Shown here: positions 27,992 to 54,500 of the stretch, one piece after another
How positions within the stretch are numbered: the stretch's first letter is position 1
How the letters are laid out: each line of letters opens with the position of its first letter
Source of the DNA: an uncultured Ruminococcus sp.
GTDB taxonomy: Bacteria; Bacillota; Clostridia; Oscillospirales; Acutalibacteraceae
DNA length: 64,000 nt
NCBI GenBank assembly: GCA_902776975.1
Contig: CACYSI010000001.1
Location: 26,661 to 90,660 of the forward strand
Reading direction: 5' to 3'
Translations under genes and position numbers: made by a program
Notes under the pieces: generated by a model
What the model was told of the DNA's origin: nothing
The model's database searches: none
Seen by the model: only the letters and a program-made list of their open reading frames with translations

Positions 27992-29392
27992 TTACATAAG
28001 CTCCTCGAGCTCGGCAAACTTCACCTTGCCGTACTCGTTGCGCGGTATTTTATCCACAACATATACCCTGAAGGCTGAGTTGTGCAGATTGGTCTTTGCG
28101 CTTATGAAGGGTATTATCTCATCCTTGATCCGCTCGTCAACGGTGAAGATGCTCATACGCTTATCGTCACCGGTACACACGCAGTCCGCGTCGGGATACT
28201 GCGACTTTAAGATGCGCTCGGTCTCGTCGAGGCTGACTCTCAGTCCAAACAGCTTCAAAAACCTGCCCTTGCGCCCGATGATATAGTAGTAGCCGTCGGC
28301 GTCTCGCTTCGCGATATCACCTGTATGATACTCACCGCAGAACTCATCGTCCTTTATAAGATCCTCTTTGCATACGGCGTAGCCCATAGTCACGTTGGGG
28401 CCTCTGTAGCCGAGCTCACCGGTCACACAGCCGTCCTCGCCCTGAGCCTCATCTATCAGAAACAGCTCTCCCTCGGGGATAGCCTTGCCGATGCTGCCGA
28501 TCTTATCTTCAGCCATTTTCGGGTCAAGAAACGCCATACGCGCGCTTGTCTCGCTGGTGCCGAAGGTCGCGCAAAAGCGCTTGCCGTTGTTCTTGCAGTA
28601 AGCGGCTGTCCACTTAAACATCTTATCGGTCAGCTTACCGCCGCCCTCTGCTAAGGTATACAGCTCGGGCAGCTCCATCCTGTCAAAGCCGATACGCCGC
28701 ATTATCTCATAGCTGAACGGCACGCCGCAAAAGCTCGTACCGCCGTTCTCTTTGATGAAGCTCCAAAAGTCGGGATCCATCAGATTAGCCTTGACCATAA
28801 GTACCGAAGCGCCTACTGCCAAATGGCTGTTGATTACGTTCAGGCCCATGGTATAGTTCATCGGGAGGTCGCATATGCCCTTCTCTTCTTCACGCCACTC
28901 AAAGACCTTGGCTACATTTCGCGCGTTAGCCTCAAGGTTACCGTATTTATGGCGCACGAGCTTAGGACTGCCCGTAGAGCCCGAGGTAGTGAGCAGCATA
29001 GAGAGCTTATCATTCAGCTCATAAGGCTTATGAGCCGTCTTTACCAGCGCGTAGCCGTAGGCTGAGTATATTTTTTCTCCGCCGAGCTCGTCGGACATCC
29101 GCTCGGGAGCCCAGTAGTAAGACGGCTGATACACCTCGTCAAGATTCGTTCTCAGACCGCTGTCGAGCTTAGCGCTCAGCAGCAGCGGGACCTGTTTATT
29201 GTTTTCAAAGGCAAGATAGCCTACGAGCGACCCCGCGCAGCTCTCGCACATACAAAAAACTACGCATCTGGGCAGAGCGAGCTCTTCAAAAGCGCGTACG
29301 GTATCGCATACGTCGCGGTAGCTCAGCTCATATCCCGAGTCGTCCTTTATCGCTGTCTTATCCTGATTATGCTTATCTAAATCTAAAAACAC
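27992..29392 (-). CDS. Adenylate-forming enzyme (AMP-dependent synthetase/ligase, DltA-like acyl/aminoacyl-carrier-protein ligase)
   Basis: LLTTSGSTGSPKLV AMP-binding motif, YHTGD and GRKGRFLKLFGLRV core motifs. GTG start at 29392. Last gene of the polysaccharide locus. Confidence 0.8.
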   Translation of the reverse strand: MFLDLDKHNQDKTAIKDDSGYELSYRDVCDTVRAFEELALPRCVVFCMCESCAGSLVGYLAFENNKQVPLLLSAKLDSGLRTNLDEVYQPSYYWAPERMSDELGGEKIYSAYGYALVKTAHKPYELNDKLSMLLTTSGSTGSPKLVRHKYGNLEANARNVAKVFEWREEEKGICDLPMNYTMGLNVINSHLAVGASVLMVKANLMDPDFWSFIKENGGTSFCGVPFSYEIMRRIGFDRMELPELYTLAEGGGKLTDKMFKWTAAYCKNNGKRFCATFGTSETSARMAFLDPKMAEDKIGSIGKAIPEGELFLIDEAQGEDGCVTGELGYRGPNVTMGYAVCKEDLIKDDEFCGEYHTGDIAKRDADGYYYIIGRKGRFLKLFGLRVSLDETERILKSQYPDADCVCTGDDKRMSIFTVDERIKDEIIPFISAKTNLHNSAFRVYVVDKIPRNEYGKVKFAELEELM

Positions 29393-30680: not shown

Positions 30681-31445
30681 TCACATTATTGTACAGCCGT
30701 CTACCGCGAGTATCTGACCCGACACATACTCCGAGAGATCGGACAGCATGAACATACAGGCTCCCGCTATGTCCTCCGGCTCGGCGAGTCTGCCCATACA
30801 GATATTGTCGATACGGCTCTTGAGTTTTTCGGGATCGGCCTGCTGCATCATAGCGGTGTTTGTCAGACCGGGAGCTATCGCGTTGACCCTGATCTTCTTA
30901 TCGGCGAGCTCCTTAGCGGCTGACTTCGTCAGAGAGATGACCGCGCCCTTGGTAGCCGAGTAGATCATCTGACCGCGGTTGCCTCTGAGCGCCGTCATAG
31001 AGGCGATATTGACTATCGAGCCGCCTTTTTCCTGGCGACCCATGACGCGGCTGACTATCTCAAGCATATTAACGGTGCCGAAGACATTGACGTCAAACAT
31101 CATCTGCATATGCTTACGATCTATCATGCCGATCAGCTCATTGAACTCTACGCCGGCGTTGTTCACCAGACCGTCTATGTGACCGCACGCCTTCTTGACC
31201 TGCATCACGGCAGTCTTTACCTGCTGAACGTCTGTGATATCAAAGTAAAGCGGACGTACCTCGCCCGACGCGCTCTCATTCACGCTGCCGCACCATTCTT
31301 CGACAGCGCCCTCGCGCACGTCGTTGGCATATACTACAGCGCCGTTCCCGACAAAAAGCTCAGCCATAGCCTGACCTATGCCTCTGCCTGCTCCGGTCAC
31401 GATAACCACTTTGTTTTCCAACAGATTGTTATTCATCTCGCTCAT
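30681..31445 (-). CDS. SDR-family oxidoreductase (FabG-like 3-oxoacyl reductase)
   Basis: TGAGRGIG cofactor motif, NNAG, S...YSATK catalytic pattern. Confidence 0.85.
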   Translation of the reverse strand: MSEMNNNLLENKVVIVTGAGRGIGQAMAELFVGNGAVVYANDVREGAVEEWCGSVNESASGEVRPLYFDITDVQQVKTAVMQVKKACGHIDGLVNNAGVEFNELIGMIDRKHMQMMFDVNVFGTVNMLEIVSRVMGRQEKGGSIVNIASMTALRGNRGQMIYSATKGAVISLTKSAAKELADKKIRVNAIAPGLTNTAMMQQADPEKLKSRIDNICMGRLAEPEDIAGACMFMLSDLSEYVSGQILAVDGCTIM

Positions 31446-31454: not shown

Positions 31455-32867
31455 TTATCTGTCCCAGACGACATTTATCTCCGTGACCTTTTCTTCTTCG
31501 GGCTGCGCGTACTTTTTCTTCAGGAACTCAGGTCCCACCTGAGGGAAGAGCACACAGCTGAGCACATCCTCATCGCTTCTCGCGATATCACCGTAGCTCT
31601 CTCTGTCCCGCTCCAGCTCAGGCTCGAGCAGATCGGCGGGTCGGCATCGGATGACCTCATCGTCGCCTATAGCCTTTTTGCGGACGTCCTCGTTGACCTT
31701 GCCCGGCAGACATCCGTATTCTCCTCTGAGCAAGCCCTTTGACTCTTTGGTAAAGGTACCGTAACGCTCGCCGAACAGAACGTTCAGCACAGCCTGAGTA
31801 CCCACGATCTGGCTTGTGGGAGTGACTAACGGAGGATAGCCGAAGTCCTCGCGCACTCCGGGCACTTCCCTGAGAACATCCTCTAACTTATCGTCGGCGT
31901 CAGCCTCATGGAGCTGCGACATCAGATTCGACAGCATACCGCCCGGCACCTGATACAGCAGGGTATTGGGGTCGGTACGCAGCACCTTGGGATTGAGTAT
32001 GCCTTCATCCTGCAGGCGCTGAGCGACGTTTCTGAAGTGCTTAGCCGCCTTGTTCAGCTTTTTCGGATCCAGCCCGGTATCACGGGGAGTTCCCCTGAAC
32101 GCCGCGACCATAGACTCGGTGGCAGGCTGAGCGGTGCCGTCGGCGAACGGCGACAGAGCGCAGTCTATGATATCTACGCCCGCCATAGCCGCCGCCATAT
32201 ATACCATAGCGCCGGTACCGGTAGTATTATGTGTATGCAGGTGGACGGGCACGCTCACCCTGTCCTTGATCTTCTTTATCAGTGTATAAGCGTTATCTGG
32301 CAGCAGGATATTAGCCATATCCTTGATACAGATAGTATCCGCGCCCATGTTTTCGAGCTTTGCCGCAAGCTCGACAAAGTAGTCGTCGCTGTGTACCGGG
32401 CTTGTGGTATAGCTGATAGCCGCCTCACAGTGAGCGCCGTACTTCTTCACGCTCTCCATAGCCGCCTGCATATTGCGCACATCGTTGAGAGCGTCAAATA
32501 TCCTGACGATGTCTATACCGTTCTCTATTGATTTTTTGCAGAATTCATCTACGACGTCATCTGCGTAGTGACGGTAGCCGAGCAGGTTCTGACCTCTCAG
32601 CAGCATCTGTAACCTTGTGTCCGGCAGAGCTCTCCTCAGCGCTCTGAGCCTGTCCCACGGATCCTCATCAAGAAACCGCATACAGGCGTCAAAGGTAGCG
32701 CCGCCCCAACACTCGAGCGACCAGTAGCCCGCCTCGTTGAGAGCCTCACAGGCAGGCAGCATATCCTCAAGGCGCATACGCGTAGCAGCCTGCGACTGAT
32801 GAGCGTCGCGCAGGATAGTGTCGGTTATATACAGCTTTTGCGCCGGAAAATTCAGCTTGTTCTCCAT
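31455..32867 (-). CDS. Carboxyltransferase 5S-type subunit (oxaloacetate decarboxylase alpha / transcarboxylase 5S family), without its own biotinyl domain
   Basis: LYITDTILRDAHQSQAATRM, HLHTHNTTG (HMGL-like TIM barrel) and a conserved C-terminal region. Ends without an AMKM motif. Confidence 0.85.
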   Translation of the reverse strand: MENKLNFPAQKLYITDTILRDAHQSQAATRMRLEDMLPACEALNEAGYWSLECWGGATFDACMRFLDEDPWDRLRALRRALPDTRLQMLLRGQNLLGYRHYADDVVDEFCKKSIENGIDIVRIFDALNDVRNMQAAMESVKKYGAHCEAAISYTTSPVHSDDYFVELAAKLENMGADTICIKDMANILLPDNAYTLIKKIKDRVSVPVHLHTHNTTGTGAMVYMAAAMAGVDIIDCALSPFADGTAQPATESMVAAFRGTPRDTGLDPKKLNKAAKHFRNVAQRLQDEGILNPKVLRTDPNTLLYQVPGGMLSNLMSQLHEADADDKLEDVLREVPGVREDFGYPPLVTPTSQIVGTQAVLNVLFGERYGTFTKESKGLLRGEYGCLPGKVNEDVRKKAIGDDEVIRCRPADLLEPELERDRESYGDIARSDEDVLSCVLFPQVGPEFLKKKYAQPEEEKVTEINVVWDR

Positions 32868-32880: not shown

Positions 32881-33258
32881 TCAGCCGATCGTAAACAGTA
32901 TCTCGCCGCCCGCGACAGTCTGTCCTTCGGCTACGCGCAGCTCGGACAGCACTCCGTCTTTCGCGGCAGTTATCTCATTTTCCATTTTCATAGCCTCAAG
33001 CACCAGTATGGGCTGACCCTTGCTGACCTTATCGCCCTGAGCCGCCATAAGCTGCACGATCGTGCCCGGCATAGGGCTGACTACCGTACCGTCCGCCGAC
33101 GCGCTATCAGCCTGTACGGGGGCTTTCTGCGCCGCGGGAGTCTCTGTGCTGCGAACAGCGGGCACAGCTTCGGTCTTTATCGGGGCGGAGCCTTCTTCGA
33201 TCAGCTCGACCTCCATCTCATAAACCTCTGAGTTGAGGGTGATTCTGTATTTACTCAT
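32881..33258 (-). CDS. Biotin carboxyl carrier protein (1.3S-like, ~125 aa)
   Basis: C-terminal LVLEAMKMENEI biotinylation motif. The MSKYRITLN start at 33258 is chosen so the gene abuts the upstream stop at 33263. Confidence 0.85.
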   Translation of the reverse strand: MSKYRITLNSEVYEMEVELIEEGSAPIKTEAVPAVRSTETPAAQKAPVQADSASADGTVVSPMPGTIVQLMAAQGDKVSKGQPILVLEAMKMENEITAAKDGVLSELRVAEGQTVAGGEILFTIG

Positions 33259-33262: not shown

Positions 33263-33448
33263 TCAGTCTCCCAGTTGATATTTTTTGTAAGCGATACCGC
33301 GCTCTTCGATATACTCTTCAAGAGCGCTCTTTCCTATCTTCCTGAAGGATCTCACTCTGATGTTTTTGATATCGGCGCCGCTCTCCTCAGCGATCGCGGC
33401 TATCGCCATTGCGACTATCGCTTCATCGTTCAGTTTCAATGCGGACAC
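33263..33448 (-). CDS. Small (61 aa) OadG/MmdE-like accessory subunit, hypothetical
   Basis: DEAIVAMAIAAIAEE resembles the conserved C-terminal motif of small decarboxylase subunits, but there is no TM helix. It sits tightly between the 12S-like and BCCP genes. Confidence 0.45.
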   Translation of the reverse strand: MSALKLNDEAIVAMAIAAIAEESGADIKNIRVRSFRKIGKSALEEYIEERGIAYKKYQLGD

Positions 33449-33453: not shown

Positions 33454-35004
33454 TTACAGCGGGATATTGCCGTGCTTTTTGAAGGGTCTGTTCTGCTTTT
33501 TGTTTTCAAGCATCCTTAAAGCGGATACGACCCTGATTTTTGTTTCTTCGGGCAGTATTACCTCGTCGACATAGCCGTGCTCGGCGGCTATATACGGGTT
33601 CATAAATTTTTCGTTATATTCGTTTATCAGTTCTTCGCGCTTAGCCGAGGAATCCTCAGCGGCGTCGATGGCTCTCCTGCCGATGATCGCGACAGCGCCC
33701 GAGGCGCCCATTACCGCTATCTCGGCGATAGGCCACGCAAATACCACGTCGGCGCCGATGCCCTTGCTGTTCATCGCGATATACGCGCCGCCGTAAGCCT
33801 TTCGCATTATTACCGAGATCTTCGGTACCGTAGCCTCAGAGTACGCGTACAGCATCTTAGCGCCGTGGCGTATTATACCGCCGTGCTCCTGCTGACTGCC
33901 GGGCAGGAACGCCGGTACGTCCACTAAGGTGAGCAGGGGTATATCAAAACAGTCGCAGAAGCGTATGAAGCGCGCTCCCTTGTCCGACGCGTTTATCTCA
34001 AGCGAGCCTGCCATATAGTTGCTCTGATTCGCGACAAGACCCACGGTCTTGCCCTCGATACGAGCGAAGCCTACCACTATGTTCTTTGCAAATGTTGCCT
34101 GTACCTCCATGAAAGAGCCTTCATCTATGAAGGTATCTATGACGTCTCTCACATCATAGCCCTTTTTAGAGTCCGCGGGCACTATCTCAGGCAGCTGTAA
34201 GCAGCGGTCTACCGATCTTCCGCTTACGGTCAGGCTCTCATCCTCGTTGCTCTGAGGCAGATAACCCAGCAGCCTTCTCACGCCGTTGAGACAGCTCAGA
34301 TCATCGGGATATACAAAGTGAGCCACACCCGACACACTGCCGTGTACCTCAGCGCCGCCCAGCTCGGCGGCTGTTATGACCTCACCGGTAACGGATTTTA
34401 CTACCGAGGGTCCTGTGATGTACATCTGACTGTTCTCTTCTGTCATGAAGATATAATCACAAATAGCCGGCGAGTAACAGGCTCCGCCGGCACAAGGGCC
34501 GAGTATTACCGATATCTGCGGGATAACGCCCGAAGCTATGGTGTTGCGGTAAAAAATGTCAGCGTAACCCGCGAGGCTGTCGATACCCTCTTCGATTCGC
34601 GCGCCGCCGCTGTCGTTTACGGATATGAACGGCGCCTTCATCTCGAGCGCCATATCCATGACGCGGCATATCTTCATAGCGTGAGCCTCTCCGAGAGAGC
34701 CGCCGCCTACCGTGAAATCCTGCGACGCGGCATACGCTAACCTGCCGTGGATATATCCGTAGCCGGTCACTACTCCGTCGCCGGGGCGCTTCTTTTTATC
34801 CATGCCGAAATCCGTGCAGCGCGACGCTATAAGGTCGTTCACCTCGACAAAGGTATTGTCGTCAAACAGCGCCTCAAGCCTCTCCCTCGCGGTCAGCTTG
34901 CCCTTTTCATGCTGTTTGTCGATCCTCGCCTTGCCGCCGCCCTCACGCGCCGATTTGCGCCTTTCATTCAACTTTTCGGTTTTTTCTTTCCATATATTGT
35001 CCAT
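33454..35004 (-). CDS. Acyl-CoA carboxyltransferase, 12S / propionyl-CoA carboxylase beta / MmdA family
   Basis: 516 aa starting MDNIWKEKTEKLNERR...KLTARERL. Two crotonase-like CT halves. Its ATG overlaps the flippase stop by 1 nt (TAATG at 35002-35006). Confidence 0.88.
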   Translation of the reverse strand: MDNIWKEKTEKLNERRKSAREGGGKARIDKQHEKGKLTARERLEALFDDNTFVEVNDLIASRCTDFGMDKKKRPGDGVVTGYGYIHGRLAYAASQDFTVGGGSLGEAHAMKICRVMDMALEMKAPFISVNDSGGARIEEGIDSLAGYADIFYRNTIASGVIPQISVILGPCAGGACYSPAICDYIFMTEENSQMYITGPSVVKSVTGEVITAAELGGAEVHGSVSGVAHFVYPDDLSCLNGVRRLLGYLPQSNEDESLTVSGRSVDRCLQLPEIVPADSKKGYDVRDVIDTFIDEGSFMEVQATFAKNIVVGFARIEGKTVGLVANQSNYMAGSLEINASDKGARFIRFCDCFDIPLLTLVDVPAFLPGSQQEHGGIIRHGAKMLYAYSEATVPKISVIMRKAYGGAYIAMNSKGIGADVVFAWPIAEIAVMGASGAVAIIGRRAIDAAEDSSAKREELINEYNEKFMNPYIAAEHGYVDEVILPEETKIRVVSALRMLENKKQNRPFKKHGNIPL

Positions 35005-42617: not shown

Positions 42618-42860
42618 TCAGTCAAAATCCACGCCGTATCTCTTGAGTATCTCTATACCGTTAAGATACGAGCCGTAGTGCAGTATATCATCAGCGTCAA
42701 ACAGCACGTCAAAGCTGTCCTCCAGCTCAGATATAAGAGAAAGATGCGCTACCGAATCCCAAACGGGCACATCTTTAAATGTAAAGTTCTCACCGAGTAC
42801 ATCCTCGCTTACGCCGAAGGTATCGGTAAACGCCTTGTTATACTTTTCTAAGTTAGTCAT
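42618..42860 (-). CDS. Acyl/aminoacyl carrier protein (DltC-like type)
   Basis: 80 aa, with the phosphopantetheine-attachment motif VWDSVAHLSLI. Confidence 0.75.
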   Translation of the reverse strand: MTNLEKYNKAFTDTFGVSEDVLGENFTFKDVPVWDSVAHLSLISELEDSFDVLFDADDILHYGSYLNGIEILKRYGVDFD

Positions 42861-42874
42861 CGTTATTCCCTCAA

Positions 42875-43093
42875 TTATTCCATCTCGGCGAGGATATCGC
42901 CTACTGTCTTGAAGCCCTTGATAACGTCGCCGGTCAGCTTTTTGCCGAACTCGTCGTCCATCATCACTATCAGTGAGAGCTTTGCCATCGAGTCGTACTC
43001 GTCTACATCGTCAAGTACGGTATCAGCTGTAAGTGTGCCCTCGTCAAGGTCGAGTGTCTCTTCGATCAGAGCGATCTTTTCCTTTTCTGTCAT
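42875..43093 (-). CDS. Acyl carrier protein (copy A of a tandem duplicate)
   Basis: 72 aa from MTEKEKIALIEE with a GGAGGA RBS 8 nt upstream. EYDSMAKLSLI Ser motif. Confidence 0.8.
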   Translation of the reverse strand: MTEKEKIALIEETLDLDEGTLTADTVLDDVDEYDSMAKLSLIVMMDDEFGKKLTGDVIKGFKTVGDILAEME

Positions 43094-43114
43094 TGTTATT
43101 TCCTCCGTTTTCAT

Positions 43115-43298
43115 TTAATATATTAAGATTTCCCAAGGGAGCTTTCAGCGCAGCGTACCGGGTTTTCGTGCTGCGTTGAGCTCGACCGTATAAAACGGGA
43201 TGTATCCCGCGTCTGTCCCGACCGTTCTTGCGGTCAGGCAGCTTGCATTGCGCTTTTATACTAACAAAAAGCGATAAAAGATTGATTTGAAATCCGTA
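43115..43298. repeat. Repeat-element insertion between the duplicated ACP genes
   Basis: ggagctttcagcgcagcg...ttttatactaa...tttgaaat resembles the flank and both termini of the 154-bp element (63380-63557) with the interior missing. Confidence 0.55.
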
Positions 43299-43517
43299 TT
43301 ACTCCATTTCGGCGAGGATATCGCCTACGGTCTTGAAGCCCTTGATAACGTCGCCGGTCAGCTTCTTGCCGAACTCGTCGTCCATCATCACTATCAGTGA
43401 GAGCTTAGCCATCGAGTCGTACTCGTCTACGTCGTCAAGTACGGTATCAGCGGTAAGTGTGCCCTCGTCGAGGTCGAGTGTTTCTTCGATCAGTGCGATC
43501 TTTTCCTGTTCTGTCAT
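43299..43517 (-). CDS. Acyl carrier protein (copy B of a tandem duplicate)
   Basis: 72 aa from MTEQEKIALIEE. The protein differs from copy A at essentially one residue in the supplied translations. Confidence 0.8.
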   Translation of the reverse strand: MTEQEKIALIEETLDLDEGTLTADTVLDDVDEYDSMAKLSLIVMMDDEFGKKLTGDVIKGFKTVGDILAEME

Positions 43518-43553
43518 AGCTTTTATTCCTTTCATTATCAGATTATATATTAT

Positions 43554-44609
43554 TTATTGATCCGTAAAACCGTCGTCAAATGTTATATCCGTAGCCAGTA
43601 CGGGATATATATCGTCGGTGTTGATCGTAAAATCGAGCACACCCCACGAAAGTCCGATACCAAAGCCGCTCGTCAGCAAGGACAGCTCTTTTCCGTCCTT
43701 ATCCTCGCCGTATTTATCCGAGATGGTCAGCGGTACCGAGGCGCTGCTCGTGTTGCCGTATCTGTCTATCGAAACAGGGCACTTTTCAAACTCGACGCCC
43801 AGTCTCTTAGCGATATTTTTGAGCACCATCATATTTGCCTGGTGGAGCACTACCGCGTCATAGCTGTCAGCCGACTTACCTGTTTTTTCAGCATACTCGC
43901 GCACGAGCTCGGGTACTTCGTTGATCGTAAAATTGAACACGGCTATATCGTCTCCGGGGATCAGCTCGGGACCTTCGGGATGACGCCAAGCGCCGTAAGG
44001 CGAGGTGATCGCCTTGAGACCCGTACCGTCGGTCATAAGTCCGCTTCTTATACAGCTGCCCTTACTCTTTTCGAGCAGGACGGCGGAGCTTGCGTCGCCG
44101 AACAGCAGTCTTGTGTTAGATGAGCGTTCGCCTGTCTCTTTTCTGCCGCGCGCCTGAGTATCTCCCATCACGATGAGAGCTTTGTCGGCAGAAGATGCCG
44201 CCAGCATACCCGCGCCTATCGAAACTCCGTATACAAATCCCGAGCAGCCTAAGTTGACGTCAAACGCCATACAGCTCTTGCTCAGACCCAGACGATCGTG
44301 CAGCAGGCAGGCGGTCGAGGGAGTGCGATAATCGGGATTCTGTGTGAGGTTTATCAGTATCCCTATCTCCTCGGGCTTATATTTGCCGTTATCCTCAAGT
44401 ATCTTTGCCGCGGCAAAAGAGAAGTCGGACGCGGTCTGATCCGCTGCGGCGATACGCTTCTGAGTGATACCGGTTTTTCTGATAAAGCTCTTTATATATT
44501 TGGGATCCTCGTTGGGATCATCCGCCATCGCCGCTATATCGAAGGCGTCCTTCGGTACGGCAGAAGCTATGGCGGCTATTCTGATATCTTTATATTCATT
44601 ATAGATCAT
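43554..44609 (-). CDS. 3-oxoacyl-ACP synthase III family (KAS III / FabH-like) enzyme
   Basis: Cys-His-Asn triad contexts NLGCSGFVYG, LHQANMM and YGNTSSAS. Confidence 0.85.
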   Translation of the reverse strand: MIYNEYKDIRIAAIASAVPKDAFDIAAMADDPNEDPKYIKSFIRKTGITQKRIAAADQTASDFSFAAAKILEDNGKYKPEEIGILINLTQNPDYRTPSTACLLHDRLGLSKSCMAFDVNLGCSGFVYGVSIGAGMLAASSADKALIVMGDTQARGRKETGERSSNTRLLFGDASSAVLLEKSKGSCIRSGLMTDGTGLKAITSPYGAWRHPEGPELIPGDDIAVFNFTINEVPELVREYAEKTGKSADSYDAVVLHQANMMVLKNIAKRLGVEFEKCPVSIDRYGNTSSASVPLTISDKYGEDKDGKELSLLTSGFGIGLSWGVLDFTINTDDIYPVLATDITFDDGFTDQ

Positions 44610-44623
44610 GTTTTTCCCTTTCG

Positions 44624-45388
44624 TTAGCAGGTAGTCAATCCGCCGTCGACAGGCAGGGTGATACCGGTGATGAATCTCGCGGCAGGACTCAACAGGAACG
44701 CTACCGCGTTAGCTATGTCGTCGGTCTTGGCGATGCCAAGATACTGACGCTTGAGCAGATCCTGATTTGTATCGCTGTCCTCGCCGTATTTTTCGATGTA
44801 TCTGTCATACAGCTCTGTCGCGGTCATAGACGGCGCGACACTGTTTATGCATATGTCCTTGTCCGCCATCTCTCTCGCGATACAGCGTATAGCCGAGTCC
44901 ATCGCGGATTTGGATGACGAATAAGCGGTCTTTGACTTATCGCCGCGTATAGACGCTACCGAAGATATGCCTACTATACGCATACCCGGGTTATATCTTC
45001 CGCGTCTGCATATCTGTCTTACTGCTTCGGTAAAGCCAAAGAAGTTTATATCAAAGACCTGCTTTATCTTTTCGGGCTTTGTCTGAAGCAGCGGGATAGC
45101 CGTACCGACTCCGGCAGAATATACCATTCCGTCCAGCGCCCCGAACTCATTTATTATTTCCTTGACGCATTTTTCTATGTTTTCGGTATCCTGAACATCC
45201 ATAGCCTTGATACCGTGACCGTCGCCTTCGAGAAGCTCGAGCACCTCTCTCAGCTTGTCCTCACGTCTTGCCGCGAGGATCACCTTCGCGCCGACCTGAC
45301 TGAGTGTGATCGCGCACTGTTTGCCGATACCGGAGGACGCGCCTATTATCAATATCCTTTTATCAGTCAAATCAATGATACTCTTCAT
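44624..45388 (-). CDS. SDR-family oxidoreductase (FabG-like)
   Basis: GASSGIG, S...YSSSK catalytic pattern, 254 aa. Confidence 0.85.
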   Translation of the reverse strand: MKSIIDLTDKRILIIGASSGIGKQCAITLSQVGAKVILAARREDKLREVLELLEGDGHGIKAMDVQDTENIEKCVKEIINEFGALDGMVYSAGVGTAIPLLQTKPEKIKQVFDINFFGFTEAVRQICRRGRYNPGMRIVGISSVASIRGDKSKTAYSSSKSAMDSAIRCIAREMADKDICINSVAPSMTATELYDRYIEKYGEDSDTNQDLLKRQYLGIAKTDDIANAVAFLLSPAARFITGITLPVDGGLTTC

Positions 45389-45399
45389 AAATATCCCCC

Positions 45400-46488
45400 T
45401 TAATACTTGCCGGGTACAAACTTGCCCTCGGCATAGTAATCCTCGGTCTCGATTATCGGGAACACCTTATCGGTGTCTATAACGGCGTTCGTAACGCCCC
45501 ACGACAGTCCGATGCCGAAGCCGCACATCAGAGCGTTCTTCCTGCCCTCGCTCTTGTCGCCGTAAGCGTCACACAGCGTCAGCGGTATCGAGATACCGCC
45601 GGTGTTGCCGAAGCGGTCGAGAGATATCGGTACGCTGTCCTTAGGCAGCTTCATCTTTCTTATGAGCTGTTTGATTATGAACTGATTAGCCTGATGGAAC
45701 ACAAAGGCGTCATAGTCCTCGGCGCCGGTCTCAGTTTTATCGAGATAATCCTTCAGCGCCTGAGGCACATCGGTGATCGAAAAGGAGAATACAGAGGTAC
45801 CGTCCATAAATATATCATACAGCGAGCGCTCGATACCGTCGCTGCACATGAACCTCTCGTGGGTGGGCGTCATATCGCGAAAGCCGCCCGCGGGCAGTAC
45901 GATAGCCTTGAAGCGGTCGCCGTCCGAACGCAGCAGAGTAGTAGTCTTAGCCTCCGGCTGTCTTTCGAGCAGAACGGCGGCGCCTGCGTCACCGTACATC
46001 ATAACTATGGATTTATCCTTGGGATCGACCAGCTTTGAGGCTGTCTCGCCCATAACGAGCAGAGCGTATTTTATATCGGAGCTGTTCATCAGCGACATAG
46101 CTGTCTGCAAGCCGTAGATGAATCCCGAGCAGCCTAAGTTGATCTCCATACAGGTACAGCTTATCGGCAGTCCGAGACGCTTTTGTACGATACTCGCGCT
46201 TGAAGGTCTGCGATAATCCGGAGACTGTGTGACCATCAGCATAGCGCCGATCTCGTTCTTATCTATATCGAGCTTTGACAGCAGGTTTTCAGCCGCCGCA
46301 ACACCGAGGTCGCTCGCGGTCTGCTCGGGCAGAGCCTTGTACATAGCCTTGATGCCTGTGCCTGCGGTGAACTTTGATGTGACCTCCTCGCCGAAAACAG
46401 GCGTGAAGCTGTCTACCGTAACGTTATTCTTAGGTACCGCGCAGGCTATGCCCGCTATTCCTATTCCTTCGCTTTTGAAAAAGGACAT
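45400..46488 (-). CDS. 3-oxoacyl-ACP synthase III family (KAS III / FabH-like) enzyme, second paralogue
   Basis: NLGCSGFIYG, FHQANQF and FGNTGGIS. The MSFFKSEG start at 46488 has a GGAGG RBS. Confidence 0.85.
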   Translation of the reverse strand: MSFFKSEGIGIAGIACAVPKNNVTVDSFTPVFGEEVTSKFTAGTGIKAMYKALPEQTASDLGVAAAENLLSKLDIDKNEIGAMLMVTQSPDYRRPSSASIVQKRLGLPISCTCMEINLGCSGFIYGLQTAMSLMNSSDIKYALLVMGETASKLVDPKDKSIVMMYGDAGAAVLLERQPEAKTTTLLRSDGDRFKAIVLPAGGFRDMTPTHERFMCSDGIERSLYDIFMDGTSVFSFSITDVPQALKDYLDKTETGAEDYDAFVFHQANQFIIKQLIRKMKLPKDSVPISLDRFGNTGGISIPLTLCDAYGDKSEGRKNALMCGFGIGLSWGVTNAVIDTDKVFPIIETEDYYAEGKFVPGKY

Positions 46489-46559
46489 TTTTCTATCCTC
46501 CGTATCTATTTTTTCATCGTTCGGGGATCCATTCCCTGAAAACATATGTATATTAAACA

Positions 46560-46649
46560 GTCATTGCGAGGGCTCGACACGCGTGTCAGCCCGCGGCAAT
46601 CTCAATCGAAAAGCAGGTCAAGACCTTTAAGCGCTTACGCGGGATCAGT
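46560..46649. repeat. Intergenic repeat with extended GACACGCGTGTC palindrome
   Basis: gggctcGACACGCGTGTCagccc (core 46576-46587), then aggtcaagacct, which is related to the ggtcttgacc hairpin core. Confidence 0.75.
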
Positions 46650-47270
46650 TTATATTTTCACAAACTTCCCGAAGTGCCCCGGGTATATCGTCGTGCCCTC
46701 AGGCACGGCTTTTATCCTCGGCTCACCGATCTCGCGCCACTGTTTTTTGCTGCCGCCGGGGAGCCTGAGCTCCGTTTCTTTGCCCTCGAGCAGACTGTCG
46801 CCCGAGAAAAAGCCGTCGTCATCCAAGTATATCCCGATGCTCCCCTGTGAGTGACCGGGTATCTCGATGAGCCTCAGCTCATGTCCCTGCCACTCAAGGC
46901 TCATGCTGTCCGTAAAGGTCTTTTCAGCCGCGCAGGTATAAGCGTGATCGGTCCGAGGTATCTCGTCGAGCTTTATCCATGTCTGCAGCTCGCAGAACAC
47001 ATCAAAGTGCCTCGCCTGATTCATCAGCGTATTGCCGAGATTCTCGGCGCATTTCTCACTGCACAGCAGGGGCGCTCCGTACTCGCGCTTCCAGTCGTTC
47101 ACACCCGATATATGGTCGTAGTGCTCATGGGTCACTATCAGCAGATCTACCGTCAGTCCCTTTGCGGGCGAGGTATCTCTCGACGGATCTATGACCACCG
47201 CGTGACCGTTCTCGGATATGATATACATATTTGACGCGAGCAGACCCGAGTCATACGCTTTTATTTCCAT
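46650..47270 (-). CDS. MBL-fold metallo-hydrolase
   Basis: THEHYDH (HxHxDH) motif and downstream His/Asp ligands. 206 aa. Confidence 0.8.
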   Translation of the reverse strand: MEIKAYDSGLLASNMYIISENGHAVVIDPSRDTSPAKGLTVDLLIVTHEHYDHISGVNDWKREYGAPLLCSEKCAENLGNTLMNQARHFDVFCELQTWIKLDEIPRTDHAYTCAAEKTFTDSMSLEWQGHELRLIEIPGHSQGSIGIYLDDDGFFSGDSLLEGKETELRLPGGSKKQWREIGEPRIKAVPEGTTIYPGHFGKFVKI

Positions 47271-48202
47271 TATTGCTCTTCGCTTAAAGCCTCTAAGGTG
47301 CTTTCGAGAGTTTTTATATTTTCAACGCGGCAGATCTTAACTCCCTTCAAGGTCTTTTTCACAAGACCCGACAGAGTTTTTCCGGGACCGCACTCAATAA
47401 AGGTGTCGATACCGCTGTCGCGCATATTCTCCAATGTCTTTACCCACTGGACCGAGCTCATAGCCTGCTTGACGAGCAGTTCGGGGATATCTCCGGCAGA
47501 GCTCACCGGCTCACCGTTCACGTTCATATAAACGGGTATCTCGGGCGCTGAAAAGCTCTTGCTCTCAAACAGCTCTTCGAGCTTCTGAGCGGCGGGCTTC
47601 ATCATAGCGCAGTGGAAGGGCGCGCTGACAGCTAACTTCATACATCTGAGCCCCTTCTCGACTCCGAGAGCGATAGCCTCGTCTACAGCGTCCGCCTCAC
47701 CGGATATTACCGTCTGTATGGGGCTGTTGTAGTTAGCCGGTATCACATAACCCGACTTCACCGTAGAGCAGAGCTTCTCGACCTCGTCGGCGGGAGCGCC
47801 GATGAACGCCGCCATAGCTCCCTTGCCCGCGGGCACAGCCTCCTGCATGGCGTCGGCTCTGAGCTGTACCATAGCGAAAACCTCGTCCATGGGGATAGCT
47901 CCCGCAAAGGTCAGCGCGGCGTACTCTCCGAGCGAGAAGCCCGCTACCGCTTCGGGCACTATGCCCTTAGCCTTCAGCGCCATACCCGCCGCCAGATCAG
48001 CGGCAAGCACACAGGGCTGTGTGTTGTGAGTCAGATTAAGCTCCTCCTGAGCGCCCTCAAAGCACAGCTTTGAGATCTCTCTGCCCAGAGCCTTGTCAGC
48101 CGCGTCAAAAACCTCTTTCGCGGCAGCTTCTGTATCATATATTTCTTTCATCATGCCGGGGTACTGAGCGCCCTGACCTGAAAACAAAAATGCTGTTTTC
48201 AT
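47270..48202 (-). CDS. fabD: ACP S-malonyltransferase
   Basis: FSGQGAQYPGM and GFSLGEYAAL (GxSxG nucleophile) motifs. 310 aa. Confidence 0.85.
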   Translation of the reverse strand: MKTAFLFSGQGAQYPGMMKEIYDTEAAAKEVFDAADKALGREISKLCFEGAQEELNLTHNTQPCVLAADLAAGMALKAKGIVPEAVAGFSLGEYAALTFAGAIPMDEVFAMVQLRADAMQEAVPAGKGAMAAFIGAPADEVEKLCSTVKSGYVIPANYNSPIQTVISGEADAVDEAIALGVEKGLRCMKLAVSAPFHCAMMKPAAQKLEELFESKSFSAPEIPVYMNVNGEPVSSAGDIPELLVKQAMSSVQWVKTLENMRDSGIDTFIECGPGKTLSGLVKKTLKGVKICRVENIKTLESTLEALSEEQ

Positions 48203-48207
48203 TGTAT

Positions 48208-48855
48208 TTACTCCAATTCCTTCATTCTTTTAGCGGGATTGCCGAGTACCGTAGAGCCGGCCTTAACATTGGTGAATACCACGCTGCCGGCGGCTAATGT
48301 AGCGTTATCTCCGATTTTTCTGCCGGGTATGATAAAGACATGACCGCCTATGTTGACCTCGCTCCCGATCCTGCAAAAGCCGCTTATACCGGTACCGGTC
48401 ATAATAGTTGTATAATCTCCGATCGACGCGTCATGTCCGACGGTGATCCTTGCGTTAAGCAAAACGCCGTCGCCGACAGTACAGTTTACCGACAGTCCTA
48501 CGCCTGAGTATATCACGCAGCCCTTACCGATCGAGGTATAAGGAGGGATCCTGACTCCCGGGGCTATTATTGTCTCAAATCTTACGCCCTGCTCCGTCAG
48601 TCTGCGCTGGATCTTCGCTTTGGTATGAGAAAAGCCTATGGTGCATACGCAACAGCATTCGTCCTTATGCTCGAGTATCCAGTCGCCCTTTCCGAGCCAC
48701 GGATAACCGTTTATATCCGTATTCTCGTCAAAGCCGTCGCCGTCGTCGATGAATCCGAGCAGATTATATGTAGGTTCGATCTCATTGATGCGCTCAATGA
48801 TATACGCTGCCTCTCTTCCGAACCCGCTCGCTCCGTATAAGACGATGTTCTTCAT
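48208..48855 (-). CDS. NeuD/PglD/VioB-family sugar N/O-acyltransferase (left-handed beta-helix)
   Basis: Rossmann-like N-terminus MKNIVLYGASGFGRE...LLGFIDD followed by hexapeptide repeats. Confidence 0.8.
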   Translation of the reverse strand: MKNIVLYGASGFGREAAYIIERINEIEPTYNLLGFIDDGDGFDENTDINGYPWLGKGDWILEHKDECCCVCTIGFSHTKAKIQRRLTEQGVRFETIIAPGVRIPPYTSIGKGCVIYSGVGLSVNCTVGDGVLLNARITVGHDASIGDYTTIMTGTGISGFCRIGSEVNIGGHVFIIPGRKIGDNATLAAGSVVFTNVKAGSTVLGNPAKRMKELE

Positions 48856-48856
48856 A

Positions 48857-49543
48857 TCACATCCCCCTGTACTCGCGTATGAGCGCGAACGCCTCGGCTG
48901 CCTTAAAGCCCGATGTCGAGCCTCTGAGCTTAGCCAGAGCCTCTACCGCCTCCAGTGATCTCGGATCGGGGAACTCGCCTAACTGAGATGTAAAGCACGC
49001 CATAGCGTCAAGCTTCTTTTGCAGATAGTCGGTTATATCAACAAAGGTATTGGGTATGAACATATTTGCGGAGTGCGGTACGTTCCACTCGGTCTCCGAC
49101 AGGCACTCATATGAATAAACGTATCTCGGAACATGCTTGTACTTGGGTCTTACCGCTACCATTACCGCCTCGGCTACTATAGCGTGATCCTTCTGCATAT
49201 CGCCGAAGTGCGGGATGAATACGATATCGGGTTCGACCCTCTGGATCAGCTCATTGATCTTGCCGTTCACGATGTGGCGCGGCTCGTTCTCGAGCAGAAC
49301 ACACGGAAACTGCAGATAGACCGTCTCCTTTATCCCCATCAGCTCATGCGCCGCCTTAGCCTGCGGATATATCATATGCGGCCAGCCGTTCTCAACGGCT
49401 TTTGAATTATCATATACCGGAGGCTTGGGGCTGGTCACGATACACACCGTGACCTCGGCTCCCTGCTCTATATACCTCGCCATCGTACCGCCGCAGCCCA
49501 GTATCTCATCGTCGGGATGGGGCGCGAATACTAATATTTTCAT
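48857..49543 (-). CDS. PIG-L / LmbE family N-acetyl-sugar deacetylase
   Basis: MKILVFAPHPDDEILGCGG motif. Confidence 0.8.
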   Translation of the reverse strand: MKILVFAPHPDDEILGCGGTMARYIEQGAEVTVCIVTSPKPPVYDNSKAVENGWPHMIYPQAKAAHELMGIKETVYLQFPCVLLENEPRHIVNGKINELIQRVEPDIVFIPHFGDMQKDHAIVAEAVMVAVRPKYKHVPRYVYSYECLSETEWNVPHSANMFIPNTFVDITDYLQKKLDAMACFTSQLGEFPDPRSLEAVEALAKLRGSTSGFKAAEAFALIREYRGM

Positions 49544-49563
49544 AACTACCTCTTTTCGGGTAC

Positions 49564-50073
49564 TCAGTGAGAGTACTCATACAGTACAAACTCTCCGTTC
49601 TCAGCCGGATACAGTCTGCGGGTCTTTCCCTTTATATCAAAGCGATATTTTTGTACGGCGCCTAACTTTTCGATAGTTTTCAGGCTGGCAGTGTTGCTGA
49701 CACGCAGATAGGCGTACGCTTTCTCATACTCCAGTCCCGTGTTATCCAGTATCTCTTTGAGCATACGGTATCCCAGCCCGTTACCTCTGAATTTTTTTGC
49801 CACAAAATATCTGCCGTATATGATATCTTTCTCCGTAGAAAAGTCGTATCTTTTATTCTTTCCGTTGGATACCACACAGTAACCTGCCCATTCGCCGTCT
49901 ATCTTGATGTAATAGACCGAATAGCCTACAAAGTATTCCATCGCGCATCTGATACGCCACGACCTGTTGACCCTTTCCATATAAAAGGGGAATGCGTGAA
50001 CAGGATCCGGTGTGAATTTCCACACCTCAAATTCATCATTTTTATGATGAAAAACCATCTTACTCATCCGCAA
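49564..50073 (-). CDS. GNAT-family N-acetyltransferase
   Basis: RGNGLGYRMLKEIL acetyl-CoA-binding-type motif. 169 aa. Confidence 0.65.
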   Translation of the reverse strand: MRMSKMVFHHKNDEFEVWKFTPDPVHAFPFYMERVNRSWRIRCAMEYFVGYSVYYIKIDGEWAGYCVVSNGKNKRYDFSTEKDIIYGRYFVAKKFRGNGLGYRMLKEILDNTGLEYEKAYAYLRVSNTASLKTIEKLGAVQKYRFDIKGKTRRLYPAENGEFVLYEYSH

Positions 50074-50078
50074 ACTCC

Positions 50079-50777: not shown

Positions 50778-50811
50778 TCCGCGGACCCTCCCTTTTTATT
50801 TTATCGATCCC

Positions 50812-50870
50812 GACAAGAAAGCGTGCGCACCAAGCGCGCGATTTCGTCTACCCATCGCTCGTGCGCACGC
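50812..50870. repeat. Intergenic repeat/hairpin (gacaagaaagcgtgcgcaccaag, shared with 56534..56556)
   Basis: 23-bp identity with 56534-56556. 10-bp inverted arms gcgtgcgcac (50821-50830) and gtgcgcacgc (50861-50870). Confidence 0.75.
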
Positions 50871-50962
50871 AGTGCGCTACTGAGCGGGGACTATAAATAT
50901 TTTTTTATTTCAGATGTTGCCGCAATAATACAGTTTGTATAATTTATCTTTGTAAACAAACA

Positions 50963-50992: not shown

Positions 50993-51021
50993 ATCAAAAA
51001 GCTATGATAGGATCCGTGCTG

Positions 51022-52240: not shown

Positions 52241-52930
52241 TCATTTAACTGTTAGTTTGCGTATCTCCGGGTCGATCTCGCTGAGCTCTTTCATTTCTTT
52301 AAAGTCCTTCTTGCCGAAAGCTACCTGTATTATAGCTGCTATCGTGCGCCCTACCAGCAGAGCGTCATATCCGAAGGACAGCTTATGAACATACAGCAGC
52401 TCAAGTTCCTTCTTTACCGGCAGCACGACTCTCATATACTCATCGTTATCGGTATATGTGTCACCGACTATATAATCGTAGATGCTCGCGACGCTTGTAA
52501 GTCCCGGTCTGACCAGCTTTACAGGCTCATATTTACCCGCGTAGATCTTTTCTACACCCTTGACGGTCATCGGTCTCGGGCCTACGATGCTCATATCGCC
52601 CTTAATAACGTTTATAAGCTGGGGCAGCTCGTCGAGCTTCAAGCGGCGCATCACCTTACCGAAAGGAAACACACGATCCTGATCCGCGACAAACATCTTT
52701 TTATCGTTGTCTGTCTGATGCATCGACCTGAATTTATAAAAATGGAACGGTTTTCCGTTCAGACCCGCTCTGTCCGAATAATAAAGCACCGTGCCCGGGC
52801 TTGATACCTTTATACCTATCACAATAATCAGATAGATCGGTGAAAGGATGATCAAAGCCAGCGAGCACAGGACGATATCAAACAGCCGTTTAACATATTT
52901 TTGATAAAAACCATGCTTTATCTTATACAT
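52241..52930 (-). CDS. Priming phosphoglycosyl transferase (bacterial sugar transferase family, PglC/EpsL-like)
   Basis: Single N-terminal re-entrant helix followed by ...KFRSM......DELPQL.NV..G.MS.VGPRP motifs. Confidence 0.88.
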   Translation of the reverse strand: MYKIKHGFYQKYVKRLFDIVLCSLALIILSPIYLIIVIGIKVSSPGTVLYYSDRAGLNGKPFHFYKFRSMHQTDNDKKMFVADQDRVFPFGKVMRRLKLDELPQLINVIKGDMSIVGPRPMTVKGVEKIYAGKYEPVKLVRPGLTSVASIYDYIVGDTYTDNDEYMRVVLPVKKELELLYVHKLSFGYDALLVGRTIAAIIQVAFGKKDFKEMKELSEIDPEIRKLTVK

Positions 52931-53108: not shown

Positions 53109-54500
53109 TTATCTGAAGCACCTTTGTATGACATCAATAATGATATCCTGCTGCTCGGGAGTGATCTTATTGTCACTGGGCAGACATATACCTCTGTTAA
53201 AGATATCCGCGCCTACGTCCACCGCGCCGTTTTCGGATATATAAGCGTTGCTTCTCGCTCTGCCGCTGCCGTGAGCGGTGATGAACGGGTTAGAACGGTA
53301 TATGGGCTGCATATGCATCGGCTTCCATATCGGTCTGCCCTCGGCGTTGATCGCCGCCAGAGCGTCCAGTATCTCGGTCGGGCTGCTCTTGCCGGGCTCC
53401 GAGCGGTACAGCGACTCTTTCTCGCCTCTCACAAACGGAGCCATAGCCTCTTCGTCTATCAGCAGGCATGACAGCCAGCAGTTAGGCTCGGAGGTCTCGC
53501 TGTCAAAGGGATTCATCTTTACGGGCAGACCCTTCAAGCCCTCTTTATATCTCTCGTATATCGCTTTTTTCTGAGCTACATGCTCCATGGTGTAAGGCAG
53601 CTGACCTCTCACCACGCCCGCCACGATATTGCTCATGCGGTAGTTGTAGCCGAGCTCCTCATGCTGGTACCACGCGGCGTCCTCGCGGCTCTGCGTAGAC
53701 CATTTGCGGGCTTTGTTCGCCCACTCTTCGCTGTCGGTCAGCAGCATACCGCCGCTGCTTCCTGTGATGATCTTGTTGCCGTTCCACGACAGCACGCCCA
53801 CATCGCCGAAGGTACCTGTCTGCTTTCCTTTATAAGTAGCGCAAAAAGACTCGGCGGCGTCTTCAACTATCAAAGCGTTGTGCTTGTCGGCTATCGCCTT
53901 TATCTCATCTATTTTGCCGGGAGTGCCGTACAGATGAGCGACGACGATCAGCCTTACCTCGGGGTAAAGCTCAAACGCTTTTTCGAGCGCGGTCGGGTCC
54001 ATGTTCCATGTATCGTATTCGGTATCTATGAATACCGCCTCGCCGCCCTCATACGCTATCGGATTTACGGTAGCGTCAAAGGTCATATCAGAGGCAAATA
54101 CCTTTTTGCCCTCGAGCGAGCCGTGACCCGCCTTAGGCTGACCGTAGAGCTTCTCCGCGCACAGCTTGATGCCTAAGTGCAGCGCTGCCGTACCCGCGGA
54201 CAGCGCTACGGCGTACTTGCTGCCGGTCATCTCGGCGGTTATTCGCTCTACTTCATTTATGTTGGCTCCCACGGTGCTTACCCAGTTGGTCTGGATAGCC
54301 TCGTCCACCCATTTCTGCTCGTCGCCGTGCATTGTCGGGCTTGAGAGCCATATCTTATTCTCAAACGGAGTGATTCCTTCAAATCTCGGGTCATTCAGTA
54401 TGTAGTCGTAAGTCGCGCTGACAGCACAGTTTGCCGGATCAACCACAACTCTGCGCTGATATCCGTCAAAGCTGACAGCCGAATTCTTGCGAAATTCCAT
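53109..54500 (-). CDS. DegT/DnrJ/EryC1/StrS-family sugar aminotransferase (PglE/EpsN-like, long form)
   Basis: GGGGAG RBS. ...AVALSAGTAALHL..., DAAESF, SWNGNKIITGSSGG (PLP-Lys region). Confidence 0.85.
   Translation of the reverse strand: MEFRKNSAVSFDGYQRRVVVDPANCAVSATYDYILNDPRFEGITPFENKIWLSSPTMHGDEQKWVDEAIQTNWVSTVGANINEVERITAEMTGSKYAVALSAGTAALHLGIKLCAEKLYGQPKAGHGSLEGKKVFASDMTFDATVNPIAYEGGEAVFIDTEYDTWNMDPTALEKAFELYPEVRLIVVAHLYGTPGKIDEIKAIADKHNALIVEDAAESFCATYKGKQTGTFGDVGVLSWNGNKIITGSSGGMLLTDSEEWANKARKWSTQSREDAAWYQHEELGYNYRMSNIVAGVVRGQLPYTMEHVAQKKAIYERYKEGLKGLPVKMNPFDSETSEPNCWLSCLLIDEEAMAPFVRGEKESLYRSEPGKSSPTEILDALAAINAEGRPIWKPMHMQPIYRSNPFITAHGSGRARSNAYISENGAVDVGADIFNRGICLPSDNKITPEQQDIIIDVIQRCFR

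Follow-up and report, generated by a model that had tools for sequence, protein, structure and literature searches.

The DNA analyzed here is a stretch of 64,000 nucleotides (64 kb, called the window) from an uncultured Ruminococcus sp., and its subject is a cassette of nine open reading frames (ORFs) that lie head-to-tail on the minus strand at 42618-48855. The cassette would be the acyl-chain-building section of one ~28-kb Wzy-dependent capsule/exopolysaccharide (EPS) operon, which runs from 56106 to 27992 on the same strand. Window proteins were assigned to families by Pfam and NCBIfam scans, and comparison with solved structures was made by sequence searches. The nine genes are listed below in the order of transcription (ACP, acyl carrier protein; MBL, metallo-beta-lactamase; KAS, 3-oxoacyl-ACP synthase; SDR, short-chain dehydrogenase/reductase).

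48208..48855, minus strand: NeuD/PglD/VioB-type left-handed beta-helix N-acyltransferase, the predicted hydroxyacyl transferase (PglD_N and Hexapep domains)
47270..48202, minus strand: dedicated FabD, malonyl-CoA:ACP transacylase (TIGR00128 score 280.5, cut-off 260.9)
46650..47270, minus strand: glyoxalase-II-like MBL-fold hydrolase (Lactamase_B, 65.5 bits)
45400..46488, minus strand: KAS III-A, cluster K1, the invariant first condensing enzyme (ACP_syn_III and ACP_syn_III_C)
44624..45388, minus strand: FabG-like SDR ketoreductase, cluster R1 (classical SDR; adh_short_C2, 172.6 bits)
43554..44609, minus strand: KAS III-B, cluster K2, the optional second condensing enzyme (ACP_syn_III and ACP_syn_III_C)
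43299..43535, minus strand: ACP1, type-1 carrier (PP-binding; the serine of its YDSMAK motif is invariant)
42875..43114, minus strand: ACP2, tandem duplicate of ACP1 (PP-binding)
42618..42860, minus strand: ACP3, type-2 carrier (recognized by hhalign and profile search; no Pfam match)

An earlier note on this DNA, made from the letters alone, had named a FabD with the motif GFSLGE, an MBL-fold hydrolase, two KAS III paralogues with a Cys-His-Asn triad, an SDR and three carriers of two sequence types, all directly downstream of a NeuD/PglD acyltransferase and a PIG-L deacetylase. Model scores, alignments and coordinates agree with that description throughout. FabD keeps Q11, S92, R117 and H201 of the E. 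coli enzyme and carries the substitutions H91F (GHSLGE to GFSLGE) and S200F. The motifs GFSLGE and APFH are invariant in 23 cassette FabD sequences. Three features favour malonyl over methylmalonyl as the extender, without proving it: in the FabD clade the residue before the catalytic His is Phe (APFH), Arg117 is retained, and the score exceeds the cut-off of the FabD equivalog model. The closest solved relatives of the MBL protein are the glyoxalases II 1XM8 and 7L0B. Its HxHxDH motif is intact and is invariant in 28 sequences, and the protein is most likely an editing or releasing thioesterase.

The two KAS III proteins score above the Pfam cut-offs for ACP_syn_III and ACP_syn_III_C and are 36% identical to each other. 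The KAS III-A ORF spans 45400-46545, and the start given in the database is Met20 (46488). In an alignment with annotated E. coli FabH, C112, H244 and N274 (E. coli numbering) are invariant columns for both proteins, and the triad is kept in most of the KAS III orthologues. Matches of KAS III-A to an E. coli 'plasmid' proved to be housekeeping fabH and served as the alignment reference only. With the FabH models of NCBIfam, KAS III-A and KAS III-B scored 184.7 and 173.3 for TIGR00747 (cut-off 292.1) and 221.1 and 213.4 for NF006829 (cut-off 249), and each is ~28% identical to E. coli FabH. These proteins are therefore specialized condensing enzymes rather than housekeeping FabH. Among solved structures the FabH-type 4EFI came first for both (209 bits for KAS III-A, 185 bits for KAS III-B) and the FabH-type 3GWA was also a top match, and no chain named CerJ or DpsC, which represent acyltransferase-type KAS III enzymes, was among the 58-60 matches listed (E <= 1e-10).

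ACP1 and ACP2 share 73 of 78 residues and ~90% DNA identity, and the proteins differ only at the N-terminus. ACP3 is ~30% identical to these type-1 carriers. The ACP3 family matched the ACP1 family with an hhalign probability of 95.7%, an ACP3 profile found the solved ACP 2LML (E = 1e-6), and the serine motif WDSVAH is invariant in 27 sequences. On these sequence comparisons, ACP3 is a genuine carrier protein. FabF/B, FabZ/A and FabI were not found by Pfam scans of the large ORFs in the whole 64-kb window, as the earlier note had stated for the locus.

Sugar-side enzymes and the downstream arm

Upstream of the cassette, the operon encodes three enzymes that would act, or may act, on the sugar.

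53109..54500, minus strand: PglE-like DegT aminotransferase (Pfam DegT, 239 bits)
52241..52930, minus strand: PglC-like small phosphoglycosyl transferase, the initiating enzyme (Bac_transf, 169 bits)
48857..49543, minus strand: PIG-L family de-N-acetylase (PF02585, 78 bits), directly upstream of the acyltransferase gene

The closest solved relative of the aminotransferase is Campylobacter jejuni PglE (1O61, 209.6 bits), and that of the phosphoglycosyl transferase is PglC (8E37, 98.8 bits). The acyltransferase at the head of the cassette passed the NeuD/PglB/VioB model TIGR03570 (score 172, cut-off 160.8). Its closest solved relatives are VioB, WeeI and PglB, of which VioB 7TXP is the best (78.6 bits). 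The catalytic His is present in the window protein, and 19 of 20 orthologues share this column. The aminotransferase, phosphoglycosyl transferase and beta-helix N-acyltransferase of Campylobacter (PglC/PglD/PglE, with PglF) and Bacillus subtilis (EpsL/M/N) are the best-matching relatives of the window enzymes. The di-N-acetylbacillosamine pathway of these bacteria takes acetyl from acetyl-CoA, whereas the window adds an acyl-building cassette and lacks a PglF-type dehydratase.

An ATP-grasp ligase, a racemase, a GNAT protein and the PIG-L protein are encoded between the PglC-like and PglD-like genes (48857-52239). The racemase belongs to the Asp-racemase family and also passed the CuyB cysteate-racemase model. 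In the closest related locus (L001; such handles denote related loci, described below), a second ATP-grasp gene takes the place of the racemase and GNAT genes. The ATP-grasp/racemase/GNAT region suggests a variable D-amino-acid amide decoration.

A further group of genes lies at the end of the operon.

33454..35004, minus strand: 12S-type carboxyltransferase, 516 aa from an internal Met (Carboxyl_trans, 618 bits)
33263..33448, minus strand: small 61-aa ORF between the carboxyltransferase and biotin carrier genes
32881..33258, minus strand: biotin carboxyl carrier protein (BCCP), 1.3S-like (Biotin_lipoyl, 77.7 bits; NCBIfam)
31455..32867, minus strand: 5S-like carboxyltransferase, oxaloacetate/pyruvate side (HMGL-like and PYC_OADA; PRK09282, 704 bits)
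30681..31445, minus strand: SDR2, cluster R2, FabG-like reductase of the ACP3/AMP-ligase arm
27992..29392, minus strand: ANL-family AMP-ligase, last gene of the operon (AMP-binding)

The earlier note was right about the nine genes of the locus and missed these conserved partners 8-15 kb downstream (AMP-ligase, second SDR and transcarboxylase genes). The AMP-ligase, SDR2 and 12S-type carboxyltransferase are found with the cassette in 15-16 related loci, and their relative positions vary. The AMP-ligase is 55-93% identical in related loci; its family, at 75-93% identity, matches KAS III-A in conservation and occurs on contigs shared with KAS III-A. SDR2 is 58-80% identical in 15 loci, and the usual order in related loci is ACP1-ACP3-SDR2-AMP-ligase. 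On two contigs (L049 and L051) there is a block of carboxyltransferase, small ORF, BCCP, 5S subunit, SDR2, (FrhB) and AMP-ligase, which is flanked by Wzy or flippase genes and by pyruvyl-transferase or flippase genes. The small ORFs of L049 and L051, at the position of the 61-aa ORF, encode 58-59 aa.

All three domain types of a transcarboxylase (12S/1.3S/5S) are present in the window, with scores that are all under the equivalog cut-offs. The 12S-type protein reached 783 bits with the mmdA model, also under its cut-off. Its gene is near the cassette in 16 loci and is alone within the flank in 9 loci. A membrane subunit like OadB/MmdB was not seen in the window, L049 or L051, and the absence of a nearby gene for a membrane beta subunit led to the rejection of a Na+-pumping decarboxylase as a reading of these genes. 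The Propionibacterium-type transcarboxylase has the same three subunit types and likewise no membrane Na+-pump subunit; the window set differs in being embedded in a capsule operon and in its scores under the equivalog cut-offs. Judged by domain content, the carboxylase genes resemble a soluble transcarboxylase and could encode an enzyme that converts acetyl-CoA and oxaloacetate to malonyl-CoA.

Related loci and published counterparts

A scan of one genome per species gave 48 loci with relatives of KAS III-A. In 30 of them KAS III-A is 60-96% identical to that of the window (the Clostridia type). The sources of this group are rumen and gut Clostridia and also metagenome-assembled genomes of Prevotella, Flexilinea and Parvibacter; among the carriers in culture are Oribacterium sp. 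WCC10 and [Clostridium] aminophilum KH1P1, each with one KAS gene, [C.] symbiosum ATCC 14940, with one KAS gene and one cassette SDR, and C. transplantifaecale. Versions of the cassette that are less closely related are found in Bacteroides, Muribaculaceae, Cyclobacteriaceae and Chthoniobacterales. Since the gene set is repeated in about 30 independent genome loci, it is not a chance pattern. Among the 41 loci of at least 15 kb, a PglD-like gene is found within 10 kb in 36, a DegT-like gene in 31 and a PglC-like gene in 29, and the co-localization of the cassette with these three genes extends across phyla. Wzy, flippase and glycosyltransferase genes are the other recurrent neighbours. FabZ-, FabF- and FabI-like clusters are absent from the recurrent neighbour genes of the 48 loci. 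PIG-L stands beside the PglD-like gene in L001 and L003-L005 as well. Some loci (L006, L019, L020 and L028) have an RmlB-like 4,6-dehydratase, and some have instead an RmlB-like dehydratase together with a WecF-like GT56 glycosyltransferase, which is the dTDP-4-amino-4,6-dideoxyhexose route.

The frame of the cassette is PglD-FabD-MBL-K1-(SDR/K2)n-ACP(1-3)-ACP3, with fixed ends and a variable middle. The cluster R1 SDR directly follows KAS III-A in most loci. KAS III-B is present in 0, 1 or 2 copies, so that 11 loci have one KAS gene, 14 loci and the window have two, and 3 loci have three. Type-1 carriers vary from 1 to 3 copies, and ACP3 is a single copy in every related locus. This variation of the KAS/SDR modules from 1 to 3 implies a programmable chain length. 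The closest relative, L001/L049, has ~75-87% DNA identity to the window in those parts of the operon that are shared and syntenic, and differs in having another SDR/KAS III-B module and an additional SDR. Modules have therefore been exchanged between near relatives.

A capsule locus of Parabacteroides distasonis (NZ_OY725780; L054, 3940-9056; automatic annotation) has one-to-one orthologues of seven window genes: the acyltransferase, ACP1, SDR, SDR2 (49% identical), AMP-ligase (48%), ACP3 (42%) and KAS III-A (34%). Its genes run AMP-ligase-ACP3-KAS III and adjoin a GT4 glycosyltransferase and a sugar transferase. It lacks the FabD, MBL, KAS III-B and transcarboxylase genes, all of which are present in the window. 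Thus a seven-gene core is common across phyla, and the FabD, MBL, KAS III-B and transcarboxylase-like genes are accessory.

The gene combination of a sugar N-hydroxyacylation cassette (KAS III, ketoreductase and ACP with a NeuD/PglD-type transferase and a 4-aminotransferase) was found in the window and in most of the 41 long loci. Two such systems have been published. In Pseudomonas syringae pv. tabaci, the viosamine island vioA, vioS, vioB, vioR and acp is responsible for N-(3-hydroxybutanoyl)viosamine on flagellin; mass spectrometry showed that the sugar is lost in mutants of vioR, vioB or vioA (PMC3927599). The flagellin glycosylation island of P. aeruginosa PAK is homologous. By gene content, the P. 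syringae island resembles the window in placing a KAS III, a FabG-like reductase and a small ACP beside a NeuD/PglB/VioB-family acyltransferase and a 4-aminotransferase. It has only one KAS III and one ACP type, without the FabD, MBL, AMP-ligase, second SDR and transcarboxylase of the window, and it serves a flagellin O-glycan with a dTDP-linked sugar in a Gram-negative host.

In Flavobacterium psychrophilum, wfpC and wfpE (KAS), wfpD (ACP), wfpF (ketoreductase) and wfpG (PglD homologue) are predicted to synthesize the 3,5-dihydroxyhexanoyl group whose presence on Qui2NAc4N was established by nuclear magnetic resonance, and the R-group genes differ between strains, which alters antigenicity (PMC6519341). 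These genes adjoin pglE, pglF and a PglC homologue. Their two different KAS and one ketoreductase equal the count of the window cassette. The F. psychrophilum pathway is a predicted one, with a single ACP type, and differs from the window in lacking a dedicated FabD, the MBL, the AMP-ligase/ACP3/SDR2 arm and the transcarboxylase. Another parallel is Vibrio cholerae O1, where the rfbK-rfbO genes use an ACP and an AMP-forming ligase to supply an unusual hydroxy acid, tetronate, for N-acylation of the 4-amino sugar perosamine, with no known KAS III condensation and with an acyltransferase of a different family.

The principle of the cassette is thus already published. In the searchable literature, nothing beyond the F. 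psychrophilum paper was found on the extended form of Clostridia and Bacteroidales, with its second carrier, AMP-ligase, second SDR, dedicated FabD, MBL and transcarboxylase. A literature search for CoA-dependent hydroxybutanoyl transferases yielded no usable result. Three things appear to be new: the larger functional unit with a second-type ACP, SDR2 and AMP-ligase, a core shared with Parabacteroides; the soluble transcarboxylase-like set embedded in the operon; and the variation of KAS/SDR modules between loci.

KAS III and SDR genes were also seen in a plasmid of Azospirillum brasilense Sp7 (p3; L053, 5973-9850), inside a pseudaminic acid cluster with pseI and pseG. This cluster probably encodes an N-hydroxyacyl pseudaminic acid pathway.

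Predicted pathway and its alternatives

Our reading is that the cassette encodes a dedicated type II 'mini-PKS' (polyketide synthase) without dehydratase and enoyl reductase, which would hydroxyacylate a 4-amino sugar of the capsule. We put its probability at roughly 0.6, from the gene families and the analogy with the published systems. FabD would load malonyl onto the type-1 carriers ACP1 and ACP2. KAS III-A would carry out a first decarboxylative condensation of a starter with malonyl-ACP, the adjacent SDR would reduce the 3-oxo to a 3-hydroxy group, and KAS III-B would perform a second condensation, adding a C2 unit. Because there is no dehydratase or enoyl reductase, the hydroxyls would be kept. 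The PglE-like aminotransferase would make the acceptor, a UDP-4-amino-4,6-dideoxy-N-acetylhexosamine. The NeuD/PglD/VioB-type transferase would then move the acyl group to the 4-amino group of this sugar, and the PglC-like enzyme would initiate the repeat unit with the acylated sugar. The earlier note had already proposed that a short 3-oxo- or 3-hydroxyacyl group built on ACP is transferred to a 4-amino sugar in a variant of the PglC/D/E logic. The PglE, PglC and VioB matches, the co-localization in related loci and the published analogues support this proposal on comparative grounds. With two KAS III genes, two condensations are implied, so the limit of one that the note had set was too narrow.

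With an acetyl starter, this scheme would give a C6 3,5-dihydroxy- or 3-oxo-5-hydroxy-hexanoyl thioester. A 3,5-dihydroxyhexanoyl-type product is predicted by analogy, because the two KAS and one cassette SDR equal the count in F. psychrophilum; we regard this specific product as doubtful. The AMP-ligase/SDR2/ACP3 arm would most likely load a carboxylic-acid starter on ACP3 for KAS III-A, judging from gene order and conservation. Starter loading is favoured because the AMP-ligase, ACP3 and KAS genes are adjacent, because loci with a single KAS retain both carrier types, and because the MBL is dispensable and the AMP-ligase is not. Alternatively, the arm may serve the synthesis of an unusual extender. 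The 12S/1.3S/5S set would provide malonyl-CoA for the pathway from acetyl-CoA and oxaloacetate.

Several points weigh against this scheme. To our knowledge, the characterized NeuD/PglD/VioB enzymes use CoA thioesters, and by its sequence the window transferase may take either acyl-ACP or acyl-CoA. The pathway needs a 4,6-dehydratase of the PglF/EpsC/CapD or RmlB type and a phosphopantetheinyl transferase, and neither is encoded in the 64-kb window. Loci with a single KAS still hold two SDRs and two carrier types, which a simple acetyl-starter scheme does not account for. The closest solved relatives of the AMP-ligase are generic ligases of small acids or dicarboxylates and are not diagnostic. 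Finally, the order of steps is uncertain, as ketoreduction was placed after transfer to the sugar in P. syringae (PMC3927599).

The donor is where the strongest alternative arises. The same chemistry might proceed through an acyl-CoA: once the MBL had released the hydroxy acid from ACP1/2, the AMP-ligase would turn it again into a thioester, of CoA (or ACP3), for use by the PglD-like enzyme. The conservation with the cassette of both an MBL of the glyoxalase-II (thiolesterase) type and an ANL ligase fits this route, and the solved relatives of the transferase were deposited as acetyltransferases, enzymes that use CoA donors. However, the MBL gene is absent while the AMP-ligase is kept in L005, L029 and the P. 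distasonis core, and the simpler versions in Pseudomonas, Flavobacterium, Bacteroides and Verrucomicrobia have neither. The route also leaves ACP3 without a clear role, and the AMP-ligase-ACP3-KAS III adjacency of P. distasonis fits starter loading better. We consider the acyl-CoA route unlikely.

An acceptor other than the 4-amino group is somewhat less probable still. The acyl group might go to a 2-amino group unmasked by PIG-L, to an amino acid that the ATP-grasp ligase attaches, or to a hydroxyl (O-acylation). Such acceptors would suit the four genes that separate the PglC-like from the PglD-like gene (PIG-L, GNAT, ATP-grasp and racemase), as well as the two or three PglD-like paralogues of several related loci. 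But PIG-L and ATP-grasp genes occur in few loci only, whereas the DegT-like and PglD-like genes are near-universal, and the acyl group is on N-4 in both P. syringae (PMC3927599) and F. psychrophilum (PMC6519341).

The product of the cassette might also be a small molecule, free or linked to a lipid (for example a short polyketide, a hydroxy acid or a membrane anchor), which the MBL would set free; location would then be its only tie to the capsule genes. The combination of AMP-ligase, KAS III paralogues and MBL resembles pathways of the pqsABCDE type, and PqsD and PqsC are among the weaker structural-database matches of KAS III-A. This explanation is very improbable: the cassette genes sit among those for glycosyltransferases, Wzy and the flippase on a single strand, where neighbours overlap or are separated by short gaps, and the linkage to a PglD-like transferase holds across at least four phyla. 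The FabD score above the equivalog cut-off and the FabH-like KAS III proteins could suggest that the cassette initiates housekeeping fatty acid synthesis, as its ordinary or its back-up module. This reading can be dismissed for practical purposes, as the genes of a complete type II fatty acid synthase are missing (no elongating KAS I/II (FabF/B), FabZ/A dehydratase or FabI/K enoyl reductase in the window or in the genes that recur across related loci), the KAS III pair is distant from FabH, and the genes lie inside a capsule operon with a strain-variable number of modules.

How gut commensals are recognized by the immune system, and how susceptible they are to phages, is shaped by their surface polysaccharides, and the capsule chemistry of Clostridia is almost unknown. 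If hydroxyacylation of a 4-amino sugar is correct, the cassette predicts polyketide-like hydroxyacyl amide decorations on capsules, and a testable rule follows, namely that the number of KAS/SDR modules sets the chain length. Two further indications are that KAS III enzymes serve as condensing enzymes dedicated to elongation and that a biotin transcarboxylase was recruited to supply a capsule pathway. As the cassette is widespread in gut and rumen anaerobes, its interest lies in three things: the module-count rule, an ACP3/AMP-ligase arm that is still unexplained, and the transcarboxylase inside the operon. A broader and tentative picture, possible at best, is that these anaerobes share a mobile, recombining 'glyco-polyketide' toolkit. 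In it, the seven-gene core would be primed through the AMP-ligase and ACP3 with a non-acetyl acid, FabD and the transcarboxylase would feed many of the loci, and each extra KAS III, with or without an SDR, would add one C2 unit over one to three condensations. The modules would set the length and hydroxylation of a 1,3-polyol N-acyl group and so give rise to antigenic diversity.

Operon layout and neighbouring genes

The operon is of the Gram-positive Wzy-dependent polysaccharide type. In transcription order, its 5' part encodes Wzz, a CpsD-like kinase, the DegT aminotransferase and the small Bac_transf phosphoglycosyl transferase, followed by the ATP-grasp ligase, amino-acid racemase, GNAT protein, PIG-L deacetylase and the cassette. 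On the 3' side of the cassette are genes for a GT4 glycosyltransferase, Wzy, a pyruvyl transferase and a second pyruvyl transferase fused to Fer4/FrhB. The tail encodes a protein with 12 transmembrane segments, the 12S-type carboxyltransferase, the small ORF, the biotin carrier, the 5S-type subunit, SDR2, an FrhB/Fer4 protein and the AMP-ligase. Intergenic gaps are short, and the stop codon of the putative flippase gene overlaps the start of the carboxyltransferase gene; the operon therefore spans ~56106 to 27992. A promoter and terminator scan of the window at 27-47 kb found no convincing intergenic terminator on the coding strand.

35004-36560: 518-aa protein with ~12 hydrophobic segments and no Pfam or NCBIfam match

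This protein is probably the Wzx-type flippase of the operon. Two polysaccharide pyruvyl transferases, one of them with a fused 4Fe-4S and FrhB_FdhB_C part, are encoded at 36718-40103, and a separate FrhB/Fer4 protein at 29428-30603. The same combination was found in related loci, and it may serve the reduction of an enolpyruvyl or pyruvyl substituent.

At the other edge, a dip in GC content (0.40) and a VapE-like gene (primase/virulence-associated E) lie immediately upstream of the Wzz gene (56000-59400). They could be remnants of mobile elements that border the capsule locus. No tRNA genes are present in the 64-kb window. Away from the operon, a 921-aa protein (3022-5787) carries a C-terminal type I dockerin, which fits a cellulosomal Ruminococcus-like host.

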